DNA from: Escherichia coli
GTDB lineage: Bacteria > Pseudomonadota > Gammaproteobacteria > Enterobacterales > Enterobacteriaceae
Direction: 5' to 3' (one strand)
Assembly (NCBI RefSeq): GCF_001677475.2
Contig: NZ_CP015229.1
Length of the DNA: 64,000 bases
The position numbers were made by a program, and so were the translations under genes. The notes beneath the pieces are model-generated. The model did not search any database. It saw nothing but the letters and a program-made list of their open reading frames with translations, and had not been told where the DNA came from. The stretch's first letter is position 1; every line of letters begins with the position of its first letter. Positions 30,834 to 46,743 of this stretch are shown here, piece after piece.

Positions 30834-32234
30834 ATGACCTCTACACCGATTACTACCGCTGATATCGCTAAAGGTAAAATTGACGATGCGTTATCTGTAC
30901 GGGAAAAAATAGGCTACGGCCTGGGTGACGCAGGCGGCACCGTAATAACTTGCCTGATCATGAATTTTCTCACCTTTTTCTACACCGACGTTTTTGGATT
31001 AACTCCGGCGCTGGTTGGCACGCTGTTTATTGCACTGCGCGTGTTTGATGCCATCTCCGACCCGGTGATGGGCGTCATTGCCGACCGGACGCAAAGTCGC
31101 TGGGGGCGCTTTCGCCCGTGGCAGCTATGGATTGCCATTCCCATCGGCATTATCGGCATCCTGACGTTCACCGTGCCAGATGCCAGCATGGGAGTAAAAA
31201 TCGCCTGGGCGTTCGGTACTTACCTGCTCCTTTCAGTCGGTTATACCGCCATCAACGTACCGTACTGCGCGCTGATCAACACCATGACCACCCGCCACAA
31301 TGAAGTGATCTCCTGCCAGTCCTGGCGATTCGTTCTCTGTGGCGTAGCGGGATTTCTGGTTTCGGTAGGCTTACCGTGGATGGTAGATCTCTTCGGTCAG
31401 GGTAATGCCGCGCGCGGCTATCAATTGGGCGTCGGCGTGCTGTGCGCCATTGCCGTGGTGATGTTCCTGTGCTGTTTTTTCTGGGTTCGTGAACGGGTGC
31501 CACTCTCCACAATGGGGAAATTTACCCTGCGCGAACATCTTGCCGGGCTGCGGAACAACGACCAACTGCTGCTGATGCTGGTCATGTCTTTCCTGCTGAT
31601 TAACGTCTTTAACATTCGCGGCGGTGGGTATATGTACTTCATTACCTACGTCTTACAAGGCAGTACGGGCTACACGTCGCTGTTCTTCACCATGGTCACC
31701 TTCGCCTCCATTATCGGCTCGGTGATTGTCAGCCCGTTAACGCGGCGTTTCGATACCGTCAAAATTTACTACTACACCAACCTGCTCCTCGCTGCGCTGG
31801 CGGTGTTGATGTGGTTCCTGCCCTCCGGCCCGGCTTATCAAACGCTGTGGCTGGCGGTGATCCTCGGTAATGGCGTAATTCTTGGCTTCACATTGCCACT
31901 GCACTTCTCATTGATGGCCTTTGCCGATGACTACGGCGAGTGGAAAACCCGCGTACGTTCTTCCGGCATGAACTTCGCCTTCAATCTGTTTTTCATCAAG
32001 CTGGCCTGGGCCTCCAGCGCCGGGATCATCAGCCTGCTGTTTATTTTTGTCGCCTACCAGCCTGGCGTGGAAAACCAGACCGCCAGTTCGCTTGGCGGGA
32101 TCGCGGCGATGGAAACATTACTGCCTGCGCTATTCCACCTGCTGCTGGCAGGGGCGATCCGCTTTTGCAAACTCAATAATCCTATGATGTCACGCATAGC
32201 TACCGACCTGCGTCAGCGTCATGTACAGCCTTAA
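30834..32234 (+). CDS. GPH-family (glycoside-pentoside-hexuronide) cation symporter, MelB/YicJ-like
   Basis: 466 aa, about 12 transmembrane helices; GPH hallmark [25 protein letters not shown]; GAGGA Shine-Dalgarno 8 nt upstream of the ATG. Confidence 0.85.
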
Positions 32235-32244
32235 GGAGCACAAG

Positions 32245-34215
32245 ATGAACATTTCGGAAGTCGATCTGCATAAACTGACGGTCAGCGATCCGTTCCTCGG
32301 TCAGTACCAACAACTGGTCCGCGACGTGGTGATTCCTTATCAGTGGGATGCCTTGAACGATCGTATCCCAGAAGCGGAACCCAGCCATGCGATTGAAAAC
32401 TTTCGCATTGCCGCCGGACTTCAGGAGGGTGAATTTTACGGGATGGTGTTTCAGGACAGCGACGTCGCCAAATGGCTGGAAGCGGTAGCCTGGTCGCTGT
32501 GCCAGAAGCCGGACGCCGAACTGGAAAAAACCGCCGACGAGGTAATCGAACTGATCGCCTCCGCCCAATGCGAAGACGGCTATCTCAATACTTACTTTAC
32601 GGTAAAAGTACCCGAAGAACGCTGGAGCAATCTGGCGGAGTGTCATGAACTTTACTGCGCCGGTCATCTGATTGAAGCCGGAGTCGCCTTCTTCCAGGCC
32701 ACGGGCAAGCGGCGCTTGCTGGAAGTGGTTTGCCGTCTGGCCGATCATATCGACAGCGTATTTGGTCCAGATGAAAGTAAGTTACACGGTTACCCTGGTC
32801 ACCCGGAAATTGAACTGGCACTGATGCGTCTGTATGAAGTGACCGAAGAGCCGCGCTACCTGGCACTGACGAACTATTTTGTCGAACAGCGTGGTGCGCA
32901 ACCGCACTATTACGACCAGGAATATGAAAAGCGCGGGCAGACCTCGCACTGGCACACCTACGGCCCGGCGTGGATGGTGAAAGATAAAGCCTACAGCCAG
33001 GCGCATTTGCCCATCGCACAGCAACAAACCGCCATCGGACATGCAGTACGCTTTGTCTATCTGATGACCGGCGTCGCGCATCTCGCGCGTTTAAGTCACG
33101 ATGACAGCAAGCGTCAGGACTGCCTGCGGCTGTGGAACAATATGGCCCAGCGTCAGTTATATATTACCGGCGGCATTGGCTCGCAAAGCAGCGGCGAAGC
33201 GTTCACTAGCGATTACGATCTGCCGAATGACACGGTATACGCTGAAAGTTGCGCCTCCATCGGCCTGATGATGTTTGCCCGACGAATGCTGGAAATGGAA
33301 GGCGACAGTCAATATGCCGATGTGATGGAGCGCGCACTGTACAACACCGTGCTCGGCGGCATGGCGCTGGATGGCAAACATTTCTTCTATGTGAATCCGC
33401 TGGAAGTACATCCAAAATCGCTGAAATTCAACCATATCTACGATCACGTTAAACCGATCCGCCAGCGTTGGTTTGGCTGCGCTTGTTGTCCGCCAAATAT
33501 CGCCCGCGTGCTGACCTCGATTGGTCATTATCTCTACACGCCGCGTGAAGATGCGTTGTATATCAACATATACGCAGGAAACAGCATGGAAGTGCCGGTA
33601 GAAAATGGCACGCTGCGCCTGCGGGTTAGCGGGAACTATCCGTGGCAGGAGCAGGTGACGATTGCGGTTGAATCGCCCCAGCCGGTACGTCATACGCTGG
33701 CTTTACGTCTGCCGGACTGGTGCACACAGCCGCAGATCATATTGAATGGGGAAGAGGTCGAGCAGGATATTCGTAAAGGGTATTTGCACATTACCCGCGA
33801 ATGGCAGGAGGGCGATACGCTGAATCTGACTTTGCCGATGCCGGTACGCCGCGTTTACGGTAACCCGCTGGTGCGTCACGTCGCCGGAAAAGTGGCGATT
33901 CAGCGCGGCCCGCTGGTGTATTGCCTGGAACAGGCCGACAACGGCGAGTCACTGCATAATCTGTGGCTGCCCACCGATGCGCCATTTACGACATTTGAAG
34001 GCAAGGGATTGTTTAGCCATAAGATCTTAATCCAGGCACCGGGTTACCGGTATGAACAGAGCAATCCAGAGCAGCAACCGCTGTGGCATTACGACAGCGC
34101 GCCAGCCAAACGCCAGACGCAAACTCTGACCTTTATCCCGTGGTTTAGCTGGGCCAACCGGGGTGAAGGCGAAATGCGGATCTGGGTGAATGAGGAAAAG
34201 CATTGCCATCCGTAG
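32245..34215 (+). CDS. Glycoside hydrolase family 127 (DUF1680, beta-L-arabinofuranosidase-like) protein
   Basis: Start at ATG 32245 (AAGGAG Shine-Dalgarno at 32233..32238), 656 aa. Motifs E-S-C (YAESCASIG) and C-A-C-C-P-P-N (WFGCACCPPNIARVL) match what I recall of the Zn/Cys catalytic centre of GH127 enzymes. Immediately follows the GPH symporter. Confidence 0.75.
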   Translation: MNISEVDLHKLTVSDPFLGQYQQLVRDVVIPYQWDALNDRIPEAEPSHAIENFRIAAGLQEGEFYGMVFQDSDVAKWLEAVAWSLCQKPDAELEKTADEVIELIASAQCEDGYLNTYFTVKVPEERWSNLAECHELYCAGHLIEAGVAFFQATGKRRLLEVVCRLADHIDSVFGPDESKLHGYPGHPEIELALMRLYEVTEEPRYLALTNYFVEQRGAQPHYYDQEYEKRGQTSHWHTYGPAWMVKDKAYSQAHLPIAQQQTAIGHAVRFVYLMTGVAHLARLSHDDSKRQDCLRLWNNMAQRQLYITGGIGSQSSGEAFTSDYDLPNDTVYAESCASIGLMMFARRMLEMEGDSQYADVMERALYNTVLGGMALDGKHFFYVNPLEVHPKSLKFNHIYDHVKPIRQRWFGCACCPPNIARVLTSIGHYLYTPREDALYINIYAGNSMEVPVENGTLRLRVSGNYPWQEQVTIAVESPQPVRHTLALRLPDWCTQPQIILNGEEVEQDIRKGYLHITREWQEGDTLNLTLPMPVRRVYGNPLVRHVAGKVAIQRGPLVYCLEQADNGESLHNLWLPTDAPFTTFEGKGLFSHKILIQAPGYRYEQSNPEQQPLWHYDSAPAKRQTQTLTFIPWFSWANRGEGEMRIWVNEEKHCHP

Positions 34216-34344: not shown

Positions 34345-35085
34345 TTAAAAACGCCAGCTCACGCCGGTGACAAAGGTAAAACTCTCATTACGATCAATCA
34401 TCGGGCTGTCGGTAATCTCTTCCGGCAGCTCGCTGTATCCTGCGCTCGCCATCAATACGACGTGCTCTCCTATCGGGTATTTTGCCGTCAGGCTGACATA
34501 GGGCACCCAGGAATCCTGCGCGGAATAACTTGCCAGACCGCTACGACGGGACTCACTCTCTGAAATGCCATAGTAATAGTCACTGAAATTCTCGTCATAA
34601 TAGAGAACGCCCAGCGCAGGTGTCAGCGACAGACGACCTATCTGCATTTTGTGGAATACCGATAGCTCCCCCACCCAGCCGTTGCTGTTATCCAGAACGT
34701 CCGCAGCTGCAGAGGCTTTCACGGTTCCCCAACGCTCGTGGTGATACCAGGCAACCCCCGCCATAGCCGTACTATCACGCTTATCAAGCTGTTGCATGGC
34801 ATAATCGTCATTATCGGCAGGGTCAAATTCCAGCGGCATCCAGGATGCGGTCAGGCTAAGTTCATTTTTTTCACTTTGCGACAGAATAAAACCTAACGTG
34901 GTCTGACGAACATAAAAAGAATCACCTTCATAACTAATCAGGGGAATTGCCTTTGTATTTTCATTATAACCGCGATAAGGCGATTCATTATAAGCCGCAC
35001 CGGCACCAATGGATAATTCAGAAGCAGTTGCGCTTGCCATAAAAGGCAACGCAAATAACGCCACAATATTGCGGTTAATTAACAT
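34345..35085 (-). CDS. yiaT: Outer-membrane protein YiaT (MipA/OmpV family)
   Basis: 246 aa; signal peptide (ALFALPFMASATASE); beta-strand-rich; C-terminal ...GVSWRF with terminal Phe typical of outer-membrane beta-barrels. Confidence 0.85.
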   Translation of the reverse strand: MLINRNIVALFALPFMASATASELSIGAGAAYNESPYRGYNENTKAIPLISYEGDSFYVRQTTLGFILSQSEKNELSLTASWMPLEFDPADNDDYAMQQLDKRDSTAMAGVAWYHHERWGTVKASAAADVLDNSNGWVGELSVFHKMQIGRLSLTPALGVLYYDENFSDYYYGISESESRRSGLASYSAQDSWVPYVSLTAKYPIGEHVVLMASAGYSELPEEITDSPMIDRNESFTFVTGVSWRF

Positions 35086-35208
35086 GTCCGGTATTCCATT
35101 TTAAAATAAGATAAAAAAGAGTCGGCATAGTAATGCTTACAATTTCTCCGGTGCAAGATTCATATTTATATAGTAATATATAAAATTATATATAATTGGG
35201 CTGTTGCG

Positions 35209-36183
35209 ATGACAAAATTACAACTTAAGTACCGGGAGTTAAAAATTATCTCGGTAATCGCTGCCAGTGAAAATATCAGCCATGCCGCGACTGTACTTGG
35301 CATCGCACAGGCCAACGTCAGCAAATATCTTGCTGATTTTGAATCAAAAGTAGGTTTAAAAGTCTTTGACCGAACCACCCGGCAACTGATGCTCACACCT
35401 TTTGGTACCGCGCTGTTGCCATACATCAATGACATGCTGGACAGAAACGAGCAGCTTAATAATTTTATTGCAGATTATAAGCATGAGAAACGTGGTCGGG
35501 TCACTATCTATGCACCAACCGGCATAATTACCTATTTATCCAAACATGTAATCGATAAAATTAAAGATATCGGTGATATCACCTTATCGCTAAAAACCTG
35601 CAATCTTGAGCGTAATGCCTTTTATGAAGGCGTCGAATTTCCCGATGATTGTGATGTTTTAATCAGCTACGCTCCACCAAAAGATGAATCGCTGGTTGCC
35701 AGTTTTATTACGCAATATGTCGTAACCGCTTATGCCAGCCAGCGCTATCTTGAGAAACATCACATTAGCCGTCCTGACGAACTCGAACATCACTCCTGTA
35801 TTTTGATCGACTCAATGATGATCGACGACGCGAATATCTGGCGCTTCAACGTCTCCGGGAGTAAAGAGGTGCGGGATTATCGTGTGAAGGGAAATTACGT
35901 TTGCGACAACACGCAATCGGCGCTGGAGCTGGCACGAAATCACCTGGGGATTGTGTTTGCGCCAGACAAAAGTGTGCAGAGCGATCTGCAAGACGGCACG
36001 CTGGTGCCCTGCTTTCAGCACCCGTATGAATGGTGGCTGGATCTGGTGGCTATCTTCCGTAAACGGGAATACCAGCCCTGGCGGGTCCAGTATGTGCTGG
36101 ATGAAATGCTGCGTGAAATTCGCCACCAGCTTGCTCAGTCGCAGCAACTGCGGCCTGAACAAGCGGCGGAAAGCGAAGATTAA
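35209..36183 (+). CDS. yiaU: LysR-family transcriptional regulator YiaU
   Basis: 324 aa; N-terminal LysR HTH (...[37 protein letters not shown]). Confidence 0.85.
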
Positions 36184-37316
36184 TGATCGAGATAAAGGTA
36201 ATGCACCCAGCTGGTCATGCGTAATAACACTTTGCGCATCACCGAGACATGGCTGAAATGATCGGAGTAGACCGCCACCTGGGCGTAAATACCGTCTGGT
36301 AAAGCGCTCAAATCAGTATGCTCATCCAGTTCAATGGTCGCGATAACGCCATCTGAACCCGGCGCTGTGTTTAACGTCTGTAAGGTACCGGTCGACTGAT
36401 AAGCTCCACCGGGAACAGCTGGACTAATGGCTGCCAGCTTACCGCTGAATACCTTACCTGGCAGAGCATTAAACACCACTTCCGCATCGTCACCAGGAGC
36501 CAGTCGCAGCAAGGAGTTCTGACGGAACTGCGCCACGATTTGTCGTTTCTGATCGGGTATAAACACCATCACCGGACGTAGCGGCAGCGACGCGGCATAG
36601 GTACCCGGACGAATCAGGACCTGGGCCACGTAACCATCGCTCGGCGCACGCACTATCGTCTGCTCAAGGTTATATTTTGCTTCCGCGAGCTGCGCTTTCA
36701 GGCTGGCGATTAGAGAATGTTCACCCAACACCAGGCTATCCAGCTGGCTCTGGACCTGTTTTTGTTCCGCCGCCGATGACTTTACGGAGGCTTCCTGCGC
36801 CAGATAATTTTGCCGCGCCACATCAATATCGCGTTCTGAAAACGGGTTTACTTTCGCCTGGCTGCCGCGTGCGTAACGCTGATACTCTTTAGCGAATTTA
36901 TCCCGCGTGGCCTTTGCCTGCTGAGTATTCGCCGCCATCTCATCTAACTCTGCGCCCAACGCCCGCTGTTTATGTTCTGCGGTAACGATATCCGCCATCA
37001 GCCGATCCACCCGCGCCTGATAACGCGTCGGGTCCAGTCGAAAAAGCACCTCGCCTTTTTTAATCAGCGTATTTTTCTTATCCGTCACTTCAATCACCAC
37101 GCCTGTCACCTGTGGGACAACAGGGATGGAAATAACCGCTTTTTGCGCTTTAAAGGTATACGGATGGTTATAGTTCATTAACAGAATTAAACCGCTGACA
37201 ATAAATATTCCCCCCAGGGCCGCTGTGGGAATGGTCCATTTATTTACAGGAATTTTGAAGATCTTAAACATTGCCCATGCGAAAGCCACATAGGTCAAGA
37301 TAATCAGTAAATCCAT
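36180..37316 (-). CDS. yiaV: HlyD-family membrane-fusion-type protein YiaV (no adjacent transporter)
   Basis: 378 aa; N-terminal transmembrane helix, long coiled-coil middle, C-terminal beta domain. Roughly three-quarters identical (by eye) to the ORF at 45242..46378 (yibH). 3' end overlaps yiaU by 4 nt, convergently. Confidence 0.85.
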
Positions 37317-37321
37317 AAGTA

Positions 37322-37645
37322 TTACTCGGCAGAAGAGGATTTGATGTCGGCGAGCTGTTTCTCCAGCCCGGCAATACGCTGTTGTAGTTGCACAACGGAG
37401 GAGTCATGGTTTTGCATTCCCCATCCCCGCTCCGGGCGGTAAAGCGTGGCCCAAATCCACAAAAATGGCCAGATAACATGCAGCGTAAAAAGACTCACCC
37501 AACCAGCGACATGAATGGCGTCGGCATGAGGATGATTACGTTTTTTAGCAATCAGGTAGGGAATATCATGTAAAATAATAATCCCATAGAATATCACCAG
37601 AAATACAAAAATAAGCACTCCCAGTGCAAAATAATCCAGGAACAT
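37322..37645 (-). CDS. yiaW: Small inner-membrane protein YiaW (DUF3302-type, two transmembrane helices plus C-terminal coiled coil)
   Basis: Start at ATG 37645 ([45 protein letters not shown]...), 107 aa, Shine-Dalgarno GAGGGA; stop lies 5 nt from the yiaV start; paralog of yibI. Confidence 0.8.
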
Positions 37646-38075
37646 ATTTCCCTCAGAGAATATAAAAAAGAACAATTAACGCATATTATGAAATGCCATG
37701 ATGCAGTGCAATTTCCTTATTTATATAACGACATATTGTTTTTTATATACTTTCTGAAGTGTGCTGCCTGGCTTTTCAGCAGGTCGAGGCTTATCATATT
37801 GAAATAATGGAACTATTGACAAAACTAATGAATAACTCCAGTAAAACATCCACAGTACAGATAAAGCGTATTAAACCTTCAATTATCTACCGTTTATTGC
37901 TGATTGGCCTCGGAACACCAATGGTGATTTACGGCCTGGTTCGCCCGCTCACCATCGAAACGCGAGATTAAACTCCTGGCAAAACACGCCCCAGAAACGC
38001 ACTTCTGTTGGCGTAGTCTGGGTTATTGCGCACGTAGGTTTAAAACGTAAATTGTAACAAAGTGCGCTTTGTTTA

Positions 38076-38158
38076 TGCCGGATGCGGCGTGTACGCCTTA
38101 TCCGGCCTACGGTCAGGTCCCCGTAGGCATGATAAGACGCGTAAGCGTCGCATCAGGC
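38076..38158. repeat. BIME: pair of inverted REP elements
   Basis: GCCGGATGCGGCGTGTACGCCTTATCCGGCCTAC and GTAGGCATGATAAGACGCGTAAGCGTCGCATCAGGC. Confidence 0.85.
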
Positions 38159-38189
38159 AATGAATACCCAATGCGACCAGCTTCTTATA

Positions 38190-39728
38190 TCAGAACAGCC
38201 CCAACGGTTTATCCGAGTAGCTCACCAGCAGACACTTGGTTTGCTGATAATGCTCCAGCATCATCTTATGGGTTTCGCGTCCGATGCCCGACTGTTTGTA
38301 GCCGCCAAACGCCGCATGTGCCGGGTAAGCGTGATAACAGTTGGTCCACACGCGCCCGGCCTGAATGCCGCGCCCCATCTTATAGGCCAGATTACCGTTG
38401 CGGCTCCAGACGCCCGCGCCCAGGCCATATTGCGTGTCATTCGCCAGCTCCAGCGCCTCTTCCATCGTTTTGAAGGTGGTCACCGCCAGCACCGGGCCAA
38501 ATATCTCTTCCTGGAACACACGCATATTGTTCTGACCAAACAGAATCGTCGGTTCGAGGTAGTAGCCGTCTTTCAGTTCGCCTTCCAGCAGCTTGCGCCG
38601 CCCGCCGGTAAGCACATCTGCGCCCTCTTTTTTGCCGATATCAATGTAATTGAGGATGGTTTCCAGTTGCCCGTGAGATACCTGCGCGCCCATTTGCGTC
38701 ACGCTGTCGAGCGGGTTACCGCTACGAATGCTTTCAACACGACGGATGGCGCGTTCCATAAAGCGTTCGTAGATAGACTCCTGCACTAAAGCACGGCTTG
38801 GACAGGTGCAAACTTCGCCCTGGTTGAAGGCGAACAATGCAAAGCCCTCCAGCGCCTTATCGAAGAAAGCATCTTCTTCATCCATCACATCGGCAAAGAA
38901 GATATTTGGCGACTTACCGCCCAACTCCAGCGTCACCGGAATAATATTTTGCGTGGCGTACTGCATAATCTGCTGACCGACTTCCGTTGAGCCGGTAAAC
39001 GCCACTTTGGCGATACGTTTTGAGGTCGCCAGATATTCACCTATTTCGCCGCCCGCACCGTTGACCACGTTCACCACGCCTGGCGGCAGTAAATCACCGA
39101 CGATCTCCATCAAAAGCAACACTGAAAGCGGGGTAAGTCGTGCGGGTTTTAGCACCACGCAGTTGCCCGCCGCCAGCGCGGGAGCCATTTTCCAGCTCGC
39201 CATCAGCAACGGGAAGTTCCACGGGATAATCTGCCCCACCACGCCTAACGGTTCGTGGAAGTGATAAGCCACAGTTTCGCTATCGACTTCACTGATCCCA
39301 CCTTCCTGCGCCCGAATACACGAGGCGAAATAGCGGAAATGGTCAATCGCCAGCGGCACATCGGCAGCACTGGTTTCGCGGATGGGCTTGCCGTTATCCC
39401 AGGTTTCTGCCGTCGCTAACAGTTCGAGGTTCTGCTCCATCCGATCGGCAATCTTAAACAGAATCGCCGCGCGATCCTGCACCGAGGTATGCGCCCATTT
39501 GTCTTTCACTTTATGCGCGGCATCCAGCGCCAGATCGATGTCGCGTTTGCCCGAAGACGCCACTTCGCACAGTAGCTGCCCGGTCACCGGCGTCAGGTTC
39601 TGGTAATACTCGCCGTCGGCGGGTGCTACCCATTCGCCGCCGATAAAGTTGTCATAGCGAGCTTTTAACTTGAGGGGGAAACCATACTCGCCGGGCTTAA
39701 TCTGTGCTGAAGGGGGATTGTTGGTCAT
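38190..39728 (-). CDS. aldB: Aldehyde dehydrogenase B (NADP-dependent)
   Basis: Start at internal ATG 39728 ([28 protein letters not shown]...), 512 aa; ALDH motifs including catalytic Cys in GEVCTCPSR and Glu in LELGGKSP. Confidence 0.93.
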
Positions 39729-44562: not shown

Positions 44563-45171
44563 TCAAGCCTTTGGCGGTTCGGTGCGAGCAAAACTTTCGC
44601 GGCTAAACAGGTTTTCGACCAGTTTGACTAAGTGTGGGCGGTCGACACACCAGCCTGGCGCAACGCGGCGGAAATTGAGATATCCGACGGCACAGGCAAT
44701 GGCGATAGTCGCCAGATTGACCGTATCGGTTTTGAGTGTGCCATCGACCAGATATCCTTCCAGCACATCCAGACTGCGGTTGATTTTCTCCCGCTGGCGT
44801 AACAATTCATCTTCAGACTGCTGCGCCGCCGGACGCGCCTGTTCGCGCACCGACACCAGCCCGGCATCCATAATACCGTCGGCCAGCGCCTCAATTTTAC
44901 GCACTCGCAACGACTCCAGCGGATCGCGCGGCAACATCGCCGGAGCGACATTCATTAATTCAATATATTCGGCAATGATCGGCGAATCAAACCAACATTC
45001 GCCCTCTTCGGTCACCAGCACCGGCACTTTCCCTAACGGGTTAAATTGCGCCACGCCGTTGTCCGCGTTATAGGGCAGCTCATTAATAAATTCGAAAGTT
45101 ATGCCCTTTTCTAACAACAGAATAGAAAGTTTGCGTACAAACGGGCTGGTGTAGCTACCGACGAGTTTCAT
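44563..45171 (-). CDS. yibF: Glutathione S-transferase-family protein YibF
   Basis: 202 aa; N-terminal thioredoxin-like GST domain ([28 protein letters not shown]). Confidence 0.88.
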
Positions 45172-45241
45172 GCCGAGTCCTTTGTGCGAGGAAAAATATC
45201 AGTATGGCTCAGGCTCGCGCAAAACACAGGTGACATAAGTC

Positions 45242-46378
45242 TCAATGATCCAAATAAAGATAATGCATCCAACTGGTCATTCTCAGCAGCACCTTCCGCA
45301 TCACCGAAACATGGCTGAAATGGTCGGAGTAAACTGCTACCTGGGCGTAAATGCCGTCGGGTAAGGCATCGATATCATCGTTGGGGTCCAGTTCAATGGT
45401 TCCCAGCACACCGTCCGTGCCGGGCACGACCGTTAATGATTGCAATACCCCCTGCGCCTGATAAGAACCGCCTGGCACGACAGGTAAAATACTGGTCAGT
45501 TTGCCGTGGAACACCTGCCCAGGTAGCGCGTTAAACACCACTTCCGCATCATCGCCGGGTTTCAGACGTAACAGCGAGTTCTGCCGAAATTGGGCGACAA
45601 TTTGCCGTTTTTGCTCGGGGATGAAAACCATCACCGGACGTAGCGGCAAGGCAGCTGCGTATGTACCTGGGCGGATCAGTACCTGAGTAACGTAGCCATT
45701 GCTTGGTGCGCGAATGACAGTCTGCTCAAGGTTATATTTTGCTTCAGTAAGTTGCGCTCTTAAGCTCACAATCTGCGACTGCTCGCCGTTAACCATACTG
45801 TCGAGCTGGCTCTGGATCTGCGCCTGCTCCGCCACCGAGCCTTTCACCAGCGCGTCCTGCGCGAGGAAGTTTTGCCGCGCATCGTCGATGTCACGTTCCG
45901 AGAACGGATTCACCGCCGCCTGGCTACCTTTCAGGTAACGTTGATAATTTTTAAACAGACGGTCGCGCTCCGCTGAAACCTGGGTGGTGTTGGCCTGCGC
46001 TTCAGTGAGCTGGGCGCGCAGCGTCTTTATATTATGCGTCGCCGTCATCAGGTCAGCCTGAAGTCTGTCAACTCGCGCCTGGTAACGAACCGGGTCGAGT
46101 TTAAAAAGCACCTCGCCCTTTTGAATAAGCTGATTATTCTTGTCAGTGACTTCAGTAACAATTCCCGTCACCTGTGGCGTGATGGGGATCGCTATCACTG
46201 CCTTTTGCGCGGTAAAAGTGTAAGGATGGTTGTAGTTCATCAATAAAATCAAACCACTCACCAGAAATACGCCTCCCAACGCCGCCGTCGCCAGCGTCCA
46301 CTGATTCACCGGAATGCGGAAGATTTTAAATACTGCCCATGCCAGCGCCACGTAAGTTAAAACAATTAACAGATCCAT
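45242..46378 (-). CDS. yibH: HlyD-family membrane-fusion-type protein YibH (paralog of YiaV)
   Basis: 378 aa; same architecture as yiaV; the N-terminal region and the last ~30 residues are near-identical to YiaV (differing at one position in the final 30, V/M). Confidence 0.85.
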
Positions 46379-46380
46379 AA

Positions 46381-46743
46381 TCAGATCTCCGGGAACGTGG
46401 AATAGTCACTCTTTTTTTCAGCTGCAAGTTGGTGCTCCAGCCGGGAAATACGGTCAGAAAGTGCGGCGATTTCCGGGTCAGTCACTTTCTCCTGCGACGC
46501 AACATGTGACTGCATGCCCCAGCCGCGCTCCGGTTGATAGAGCGTCGCCCAGATCCACAGAAACGGCCAGATAACATGCAGAGTAAACAGGCTAACCCAG
46601 CCCGCCGTATGAATAGCGTCGGCATGGGGATGGTTGCGCTTTTTGGCAATCAAATAAGGGATGTCATGTATCGCGATGATTCCATAAAAAATCACCAGAA
46701 AGACGAAGATCAGCACTCCCAACGCGAAGTAGTTTAGAAACAT
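46381..46743 (-). CDS. yibI: Small inner-membrane protein YibI (DUF3302-type, paralog of YiaW)
   Basis: 120 aa; N-terminal region near-identical to YiaW, C-terminal tail divergent; stop is 2 nt from the yibH start; GAGG Shine-Dalgarno. Confidence 0.85.

Follow-up and report, generated by a model that had tools for sequence, protein, structure and literature searches.

What does a periplasmic adaptor protein do when no transporter accompanies it? The question is raised by yiaW-yiaV, a two-gene cassette on the minus strand (36180-37645) of a 64,000-nucleotide (nt) stretch of Escherichia coli DNA (RefSeq assembly GCF_001677475.2, contig NZ_CP015229.1), which is called the window here and whose coordinates are used throughout. 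To our knowledge, every characterized Gram-negative tripartite efflux or secretion system centers on an energized inner-membrane transporter of the resistance-nodulation-division (RND), ATP-binding cassette (ABC), major facilitator superfamily (MFS), or FUSC/ArAE type. An earlier note on this DNA, made from the sequence alone, had described YiaV as an HlyD/EmrA-type protein with no such pump beside it and had suggested that the small membrane protein YiaW replaces the pump. The observation on yiaW-yiaV is correct and far beyond chance, and the idea built upon it is the best available reading, albeit an unproven one. We put at roughly 45% the probability that the two proteins constitute, by themselves, the inner-membrane and periplasmic parts of a tripartite conduit of the TolC type that spans the envelope.

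The two genes are closely coupled. The first, yiaW (37322-37645, minus strand; ATG at 37645, TAA stop at 37324-37322), encodes a 107-amino-acid protein of the DUF3302 family. After a spacer of 5 nt (37317-37321), it is followed on the same strand by yiaV (36180-37316; ATG at 37316, stop at 36182-36180), which encodes an EmrA-like periplasmic adaptor of 378 amino acids. Lengths, spacing, and coordinates, read again from the open reading frames, all agree with the earlier note. A Shine-Dalgarno-like GAGGGA read from the sequence lies 3 nt 5' of the yiaW ATG (37649-37654, minus strand), and a longer yiaW reading frame (117 amino acids, TTG start) that also exists is disfavored because homologues begin with MFL(D/N)YF. 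The ratio of nonsynonymous to synonymous substitution rates (dN/dS), calculated against orthologues from Citrobacter, Pseudocitrobacter, and E. whittamii, is 0.02 to 0.11 for both genes (0.03 to 0.11 for yiaW), indicating that yiaW and yiaV are real, constrained genes under strong purifying selection. RefSeq names both of them in 3758 E. coli genomes.

The fold of YiaV places it firmly among the adaptors. Its sequence matches the Pfam families CusB_dom_1, HlyD_D23, and HlyD_3, of which HlyD_D23 was one of the hidden Markov models (HMMs) proposed beforehand. The AlphaFold2 model (mean predicted local distance difference test [pLDDT] score of 81.6) displays a lipoyl domain, an alpha-helical hairpin, and a beta-barrel, which is the architecture of HlyD/EmrA-type adaptors (TCDB 8.A.1), and has no membrane-proximal domain; the hairpin and beta domain read from the sequence are therefore both present in the model. 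The hairpin spans residues 97-218 (36663-37028, minus strand) and has arms of about 56 residues each, one made by a helix at 97-152 and the other by helices at 161-196 and 202-218. Foldseek returned E. coli EmrA from the EmrAB-TolC structures 8zar and 8zal as the best match (E = 9e-21, TM-score of 0.63), with MacA, AcrA, and MexA as further matches. The closest solved relative by sequence is likewise EmrA (E = 7.5e-12; residues 53-298 aligned), and the hairpins of the two proteins are nearly equal in length, differing by a gap of only 2 residues. Judged by profile scores, YiaV is not an EmrA orthologue, since it reaches 111.2 bits against the NCBIfam family EmrA/EmrK (TIGR00998), for which the curated cut-off is 390.8, and 110.6 bits against MdtN (NF007785), for which it is 376.

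It is in the membrane that YiaV departs from its relatives. A single-helix anchor had been assumed; membrane anchoring holds, and the single helix does not, as hydropathy and the model both indicate two hydrophobic helices (residues 2-19 and 28-50; 37167-37313, minus strand) joined by a loop ([10 protein letters not shown]) with a charge of +3. This two-helix hairpin, which ends in NYNHP, is an atypical anchor, and the model adds a conserved C-terminal helix at residues 355-374 (36195-36254, minus strand). When YiaV was compared region by region with nine distant homologues, the N-terminal two-helix hairpin was the most conserved part of the protein (mean identity of 61.5%), followed by the C-terminal helix (50%), the beta-barrel (47%), the lipoyl half (38%), and the alpha-hairpin, which is the least conserved (19%) and also varies in length, being shorter in the distant homologues. 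Among the residues that never vary are K18, N25, W27, and those of the NYNHP motif, which sits where helix 2 reaches the periplasm; the C-terminal helix contributes R361, L364, R366, M367, and W370. In EmrA and EmrK, used as a control pair, the pattern is reversed, with the N-terminal tail and transmembrane helix least conserved (24 to 28%) and the barrel at 63 to 67%. Because a mere tether would not be so conserved, the membrane segments of YiaV evidently do something specific; most simply, they would bind YiaW and form the inner-membrane part of an assembly.

YiaW matches the Pfam family DUF3302 (PF11742) over the whole model (positions 1-77 of 77, E = 2.2e-43), as the earlier note had anticipated, and family members range from 70 to 229 amino acids. 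By hydropathy and in the model, YiaW is a small protein with two transmembrane helices. Hydrophobic helix 1 covers residues 5-25 (37571-37633, minus strand) and is modeled as a helix from 2 to 35, while the Trp-rich helix 2 covers residues 47-68 (37442-37507, minus strand; [19 protein letters not shown]) and is modeled from 41 to 69. Between them lies a conserved, His/Asp-rich turn region (residues 26-46; 37508-37570, minus strand; [21 protein letters not shown]), with RNHPH at the turn itself in the model. P29, H38, P39, and A43 are invariant in this region, and H26, D27, R36, H40, D42, and H45 are nearly so; in helix 2, W49, S51, W59, P60, and W65 are invariant. The core of the family is highly conserved as a whole ([42 protein letters not shown]), and the tail is of variable length. 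The C-terminal helix, which had been read as amphipathic, can be described more precisely as a modeled, coiled-coil-like heptad helix (residues 82-102; 37340-37402, minus strand) with L87, I91, L94, L98, and I101 in the heptad positions, of which L87 and L94 are invariant in alignment A4. Among solved structures, the only matches to DUF3302 were chance-level ones to membrane helices and coiled coils.

The association between the two families extends far beyond E. coli. We collected 76 Enterobacterales loci by scanning species-representative genomes with a DUF3302 alignment and added distant family members through contig look-ups and through annotated plasmids and chromids; loci that need to be told apart are given L numbers below. 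A YiaV-type adaptor gene follows the DUF3302 gene on the same strand in all 84 loci with room downstream, at a stop-to-start spacing of -4 to +11 nt, with one case of 23 nt, which is spacing of the coupling type. Lack of conserved adjacency would have counted against the idea of the earlier note, and the survey found the adjacency conserved. The loci belong to Enterobacterales, other Gammaproteobacteria and Alphaproteobacteria, one Bacteroidota genome, and metagenomes; the pairing was seen in Pseudoalteromonas, Aeromonas, Sinorhizobium, Rhizobium, a third, paralogous pair in Klebsiella, and uncultured lineages. The only exceptions are contig ends and one Microvirga copy interrupted by IS5. A reverse search of the plasmid collection gave the same picture: the first 60 residues of YiaV match 67 records, with genus counts equal to those of DUF3302, and the surplus DUF3302 matches are partial remnants only. 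No fusion long enough to join DUF3302 to an adaptor was found among the approximately 390 family members listed (the family comprises 883 clusters at 50% identity), and so the check for fused forms, which had also been proposed, gave none.

The remnants are worth a separate remark. DUF3302 fragments of 35 to 67% of full length, without an adjoining adaptor, occur in Rhizobium, Ensifer, and Microvirga records of the plasmid collection and in L086. Together with the copy cut by IS5, they indicate that the pair decays in some alphaproteobacterial replicons.

The window itself holds a second copy of the cassette, which the earlier note had overlooked. It lies 9 kb away on the minus strand (46743-45242), between yibF and mtlA, and consists of yibI (46381-46743; 120 amino acids, 75% identical to YiaW) and yibH (45242-46378; 378 amino acids, 76% identical to YiaV), which starts 2 nt past the yibI stop. 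YiaV and YibH agree at 96% of positions in the C-terminal helix and at 83% in the N-terminal hairpin. The pair is duplicated as a unit: the window has two copies, and some genomes of Citrobacter and Klebsiella have three. The yibIH type, flanked by mtlA and yibF, is widespread in Enterobacteriaceae, and the yiaWV type, which stands between aldB and yiaU, occurs only in Escherichia, Citrobacter, and Pseudocitrobacter. In the window, yibF is directly followed by yibH (44563-46378), and the rhs element that comes after yibF in K-12 DH5alpha is missing.

No RND, ABC, MFS, or FUSC pump gene was found in the operon, either in the window or in about 90 related loci, and the claim that the adaptor lacks an adjoining pump therefore holds well beyond this one genome. 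The flanking genes vary by lineage, with no cognate pump among them: aldB, yiaU, and yiaT flank the pair only in Escherichia, Citrobacter, and Pseudocitrobacter, and unrelated genes take their places elsewhere. Several candidates were considered and rejected. Polytopic neighbors proved to be phosphotransferase system (PTS) components, GPH, lactate, or sugar permeases, or SulP proteins. An EmrB-like gene in a Yersinia locus (L048) lies in an operon that converges on the pair and contains an adaptor gene of its own, and a MacB-like gene in L090 is separated from the pair by other genes and is missing from sister loci. Na+/H+ exchanger genes stand by the pair in L078 and L102 and were treated as coincidence, given that they are unrelated to each other.

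Other genes for ion handling turn up repeatedly around the pair. In rhizobia (L087 and L098, on Sinorhizobium and Rhizobium chromids), these encode SulP, ppk2, AI-2E, and cax together with a K+ channel; in Aeromonas (L089), MscS; and in L102, a K+ channel and AI-2E. Such neighbors could reflect chance or could hint at a role in ion homeostasis.

If the adaptor has no pump, does it have a channel? In E. coli-type pairs, no outer-membrane factor gene adjoins the cassette. At least six distinct, distant loci, however, carry a full-length outer-membrane factor of the NodT/TolC type (TIGR01845, 171 to 184 bits over the whole profile) in the operon of the pair, again with no pump; they include Reichenbachiella (Bacteroidota), a hydrothermal-vent assembly, and several metagenomic lineages. 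The genes come in two orders. In L080-83 and L090-95, the outer-membrane factor gene precedes the DUF3302 and adaptor genes, and in L102 and L104, it follows them; the gaps in these operons are 1 to 16 nt, or the genes overlap. The outer-membrane factors of both orders resemble one another (29 to 31% identity, E = 1e-57 to 1e-65) far more than they resemble that of a neighboring FUSC operon (E = 1e-15 to 1e-19 only), which argues for an old three-part system with rearranged gene order.

The neighboring operon just mentioned makes L102 (GCA_027057275.1, 957-10704) a natural control. Here, a full operon of the AaeXAB-like kind, encoding a FUSC pump, an outer-membrane factor, a DUF1656 protein, and an adaptor, stands three genes away from an operon of DUF3302, adaptor, and outer-membrane factor genes that has no pump.

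Published work on these genes is scattered. The earlier note had called them named but functionally uncharacterized, and the literature searched indeed holds no characterization of YiaV, YiaW, YibH, or YibI and rarely mentions DUF3302; the TCDB entry for YiaV, 8.A.1.1.4, is likewise listed as uncharacterized (PMC10971958). In E. coli evolved in macrophages, yiaW acquired an IS1 insertion that was without phenotype on its own (PMC5495878), and a passage in PMC12844161 cites a higher Ca2+ transformation efficiency for an E. coli yiaW deletion. In uropathogenic E. coli, yibI is induced 5.6-fold in urine, and a yibI deletion mutant shows reduced adhesion and, in urine, a competitive index of 0.33 (PMC5404293). 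Deletion of yibH in K. pneumoniae leads to fewer plaques by evolved phages (PMC11796411), and the gene has otherwise been employed as a chromosomal integration site (PMC5852967). Finally, yiaV is a hit in a genome-wide association study of Vibrio vulnificus (PMC10485832), and a passage in the same paper attributes to earlier work, and so at second hand, an effect of yiaV on drug tolerance in E. coli.

How might the pair work? As a conduit, YiaV would oligomerize like EmrA, its lipoyl, beta-barrel, and alpha-hairpin domains forming a periplasmic tube that reaches an outer-membrane factor. That factor would be TolC, encoded elsewhere, in E. coli and the dedicated NodT-type protein in other phyla. 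The inner-membrane part would be made up of the N-terminal hairpin and C-terminal helix of YiaV together with the YiaW hairpin and its His/Asp-rich turn, which would take the place of a transporter. The pair might let a small solute or ion exit the cell, or otherwise connect the two membranes, and the His/Asp cluster in the YiaW turn and the NYNHP of YiaV are candidate sites for binding an ion or substrate. What the analysis shows is the coupling of the genes, the fold, the pattern of conservation, the lack of a pump in the operon, and, in distant relatives, the linkage to an outer-membrane factor; contact between YiaW and YiaV, their oligomeric state and stoichiometry, docking onto TolC in E. 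coli, and any transport, with its substrate and energy source, are inferred. The suggestion that the small protein stands in for a pump gains indirect support from three sides: the operons that join DUF3302, adaptor, and outer-membrane factor genes in two orders; the unusually conserved membrane segments of the adaptor; and the locus in which a pump operon and a pump-less one lie side by side. A bolder version, which we hold only tentatively and regard as rather doubtful, is that DUF3302, a YiaV-type adaptor, and a TolC/NodT channel would constitute a new class of tripartite system, with an inner-membrane ring of two-helix hairpins from both proteins and no member of a known transporter superfamily, in which the His/Asp turn (HD...RNHPHxDAIH in YiaW; NYNHP in YiaV) would handle the ion or substrate.

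A number of points weigh against the conduit. No energy-transducing component was identified, and a permeation path would have to be built from only four short helices per YiaW-YiaV pair. The R-L-S motif for TolC docking is not clearly in register at the YiaV hairpin tip when the alignment with EmrA is inspected by eye, and the adaptors linked to outer-membrane factors have much shorter hairpins than YiaV, so the geometry varies from lineage to lineage. In L102, the Na+/H+ exchanger gene begins only 12 nt past the outer-membrane factor gene, which makes an additional partner possible at some loci. The topology of YiaW is ambiguous by the positive-inside count (3 Lys/Arg in the loop, 2 in the C-terminal flank). 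AlphaFold2 prediction of a fused chain, in which YiaW was joined to YiaV by a 25-residue Gly/Ser linker and modeled from a paired alignment of 21 sequences, is a crude test and gave a pLDDT of 71.5 and a predicted template modeling score of 0.43, with confidence in the membrane segments no higher than for YiaV alone. Lastly, the published phenotypes are mild and non-specific.

The strongest alternative is one that we consider possible but unlikely: YiaV would be an ordinary adaptor for a pump encoded elsewhere, such as an orphan exporter of the FUSC/ArAE or MFS type, and YiaW would be an accessory subunit like AaeX or YdhI in AaeAB-type pumps or AcrZ with AcrB. The pair itself supplies no energy. 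A gene for a two-helix protein directly before an adaptor gene is the arrangement of aaeX and aaeA (7-nt gap), and the NCBIfam families nearest to YiaV, EmrA/EmrK and MdtN, serve MFS and FUSC-type pumps. E. coli also has FUSC proteins without an adjoining adaptor (YccS, YhfK, and YeeA), and adaptors can be common to several pumps. Yet none of about 90 operons from several classes contains a pump gene, not even those that carry their own outer-membrane factor, and the pair has been duplicated and relocated without any pump. The FUSC pump in L102 is encoded with its own DUF1656 protein and adaptor, indicating that such systems normally keep their parts together. Moreover, DUF3302 has no detectable homology to AaeX/DUF1656 (hhalign probability of 0.08), and conservation of the membrane segments is much higher in YiaV than in EmrA and EmrK.

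Less probable still is a function outside transport, in which the adaptor fold would link the inner membrane with peptidoglycan or with the outer membrane as a scaffold, tether, or sensor and thereby affect the cell surface. Such a role would need no energy module, and the phenotypes reported are surface related: transformation for yiaW, adhesion and urine fitness for yibI, and phage plaques for yibH. The neighboring regulator YiaU, called LpsR or CsuR in the literature, has itself been linked to yiaT, to waa genes, and to surface properties (PMC9068703; PMC9308461). The same phenotypes, however, are equally explained by failed export of an envelope-relevant molecule, YiaV is a close fold match to the tube-forming EmrA, and the outer-membrane proteins encoded with the pair in distant relatives are efflux-type channels of the NodT/TolC family, not anchors.

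An anti-phage defense or toxin-antitoxin-like membrane module is highly improbable, for although the cassette has two genes, is duplicated, occurs in variable genomic contexts, is subject to H-NS silencing in K-12 (PMC3946193), and has been tied through yibH to plaque formation in one report (PMC11796411), neither YiaW nor YiaV matches any PADLOC-DB 2.0 model, plaque formation fell when yibH was deleted, contrary to what the loss of a defense system would cause, and syntenic, vertical conservation across Enterobacteriaceae under strong purifying selection is atypical of a defense island.

An adaptor pair without a pump would matter beyond this locus. A widespread adaptor family that is never accompanied by a transporter would reveal either a minimal new inner-membrane component or a hidden partner acting in trans, and since the pair occurs twice in E. 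coli, the question can be put to the test directly in the most tractable genetic system there is. The reports on urine fitness, adhesion, transformation, plaques, and, at second hand, drug tolerance suggest an envelope role relevant to infection, and an answer would assign a function to two long-standing E. coli y-genes and one DUF family. The genes being already annotated, the novelty lies in the system-level picture: a widespread pump-less module of an adaptor and a DUF3302 protein, with its own conserved membrane domain and, in some phyla, a link to an outer-membrane factor.

The surroundings of the cassette in the window are those of other E. coli chromosomes, to which this stretch is about 98% identical and in which the neighbors are yiaT (MipA/OmpV family), yiaU, and aldB. 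On one side lies yiaU (35209-36183, plus strand), a LysR family gene convergent with yiaV, the stops of the two overlapping by 4 nt (36180-36183); on the other, upstream of yiaW, lies aldB (38190-39728, minus strand). A LysR regulator and aldB, and no pump, are what the earlier note had reported here. yiaU and yiaV have been listed as a convergent excludon from E. coli RNA sequencing (PMC12288877), and no terminator-like site was found between them. YiaU may regulate yiaWV in E. coli, but it is not an obligate companion of the pair: Enterobacter and Lelliottia keep aldB-yiaU without yiaWV in between, and yibIH and other copies of the pair have no LysR neighbor.

In the spacer between yiaW and aldB, a consensus scan picked out a sigma-70 promoter-like site, TTGTCA-18-TATGAT (37793-37822, minus strand), about 150 nt 5' of yiaW, and no inverted repeats were found at 37640-38200. 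Genomic systematic evolution of ligands by exponential enrichment (SELEX) in K-12 has placed constitutive RpoD promoters upstream of both 'yiaWV', where H-NS also binds, and 'yibIH' (PMC3946193). The same spacer contains a small open reading frame (37759-37971, plus strand; 70 amino acids from a GTG start), at whose position RefSeq annotates a 47-amino-acid hypothetical protein in K-12; its hydrophobic stretch suggests that it might encode a small membrane protein. A megablast search with 35000-38200 gave a median of 4 hits per E. coli genome, which points to some repeated sequence in this interval besides the genes themselves. Farther out, beside yiaT, a 664-amino-acid reading frame (32221-34215, plus strand) is related to the aceric acid hydrolase, GH127-like family (NF049879, 457 bits, under the cut-off of 950 bits). 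K-12 has just two pseudogene scraps at this position, and in Citrobacter and Pseudocitrobacter, an 84 to 88% identical counterpart adjoins yiaT.

How, then, does the pair compare with the tripartite systems already known? EmrAB-TolC is the nearest in build. YiaV has the EmrA fold, with a long alpha-hairpin and no membrane-proximal domain, and TolC is encoded elsewhere in E. coli, as YiaV would require and as is also the case for other TolC-dependent pumps of this species. The differences lie in the inner membrane: no EmrB-like MFS gene stands by yiaV, the anchor of YiaV has two helices where that of EmrA has one, a further conserved helix lies at the C terminus of YiaV, conservation peaks in the membrane part of YiaV and is lowest in that of EmrA/EmrK, and the YiaV-type adaptor has an obligatory DUF3302 partner gene on its 5' side. 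MdtNOP, which consists of the adaptor MdtN, the FUSC-type MdtO, and the outer-membrane factor MdtP, is also akin, in that MdtN is among the two best NCBIfam matches for YiaV and its distant homologues. These proteins, however, reach only 111 to 133 bits against an equivalog cut-off of 376, and the pair has no MdtO-like gene beside it and, in E. coli, no MdtP-like gene either.

In gene arrangement, the closest parallel is AaeXAB, in which the gene for a small two-helix membrane protein also lies directly 5' of the adaptor gene, with a LysR regulator nearby. YdhIJK has the same make-up, namely, a small DUF1656 membrane protein, an adaptor, and a FUSC/ArAE pump. In L102, both types of operon stand side by side, each with its own outer-membrane factor. 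The FUSC pump AaeB, in contrast, has no counterpart in yiaWV or the related DUF3302 operons, and YiaV shares only 21% identity with AaeA, a protein with one transmembrane helix. That a tripartite pump can have a very small membrane protein among its subunits is known, finally, from AcrZ of AcrAB-TolC. This inner-membrane accessory protein consists of one helix, binds the large RND transporter, is dispensable for assembly, and has its gene at a distance from acrAB; YiaW differs in that its gene is always translationally adjacent to that of the adaptor, with no transporter present.

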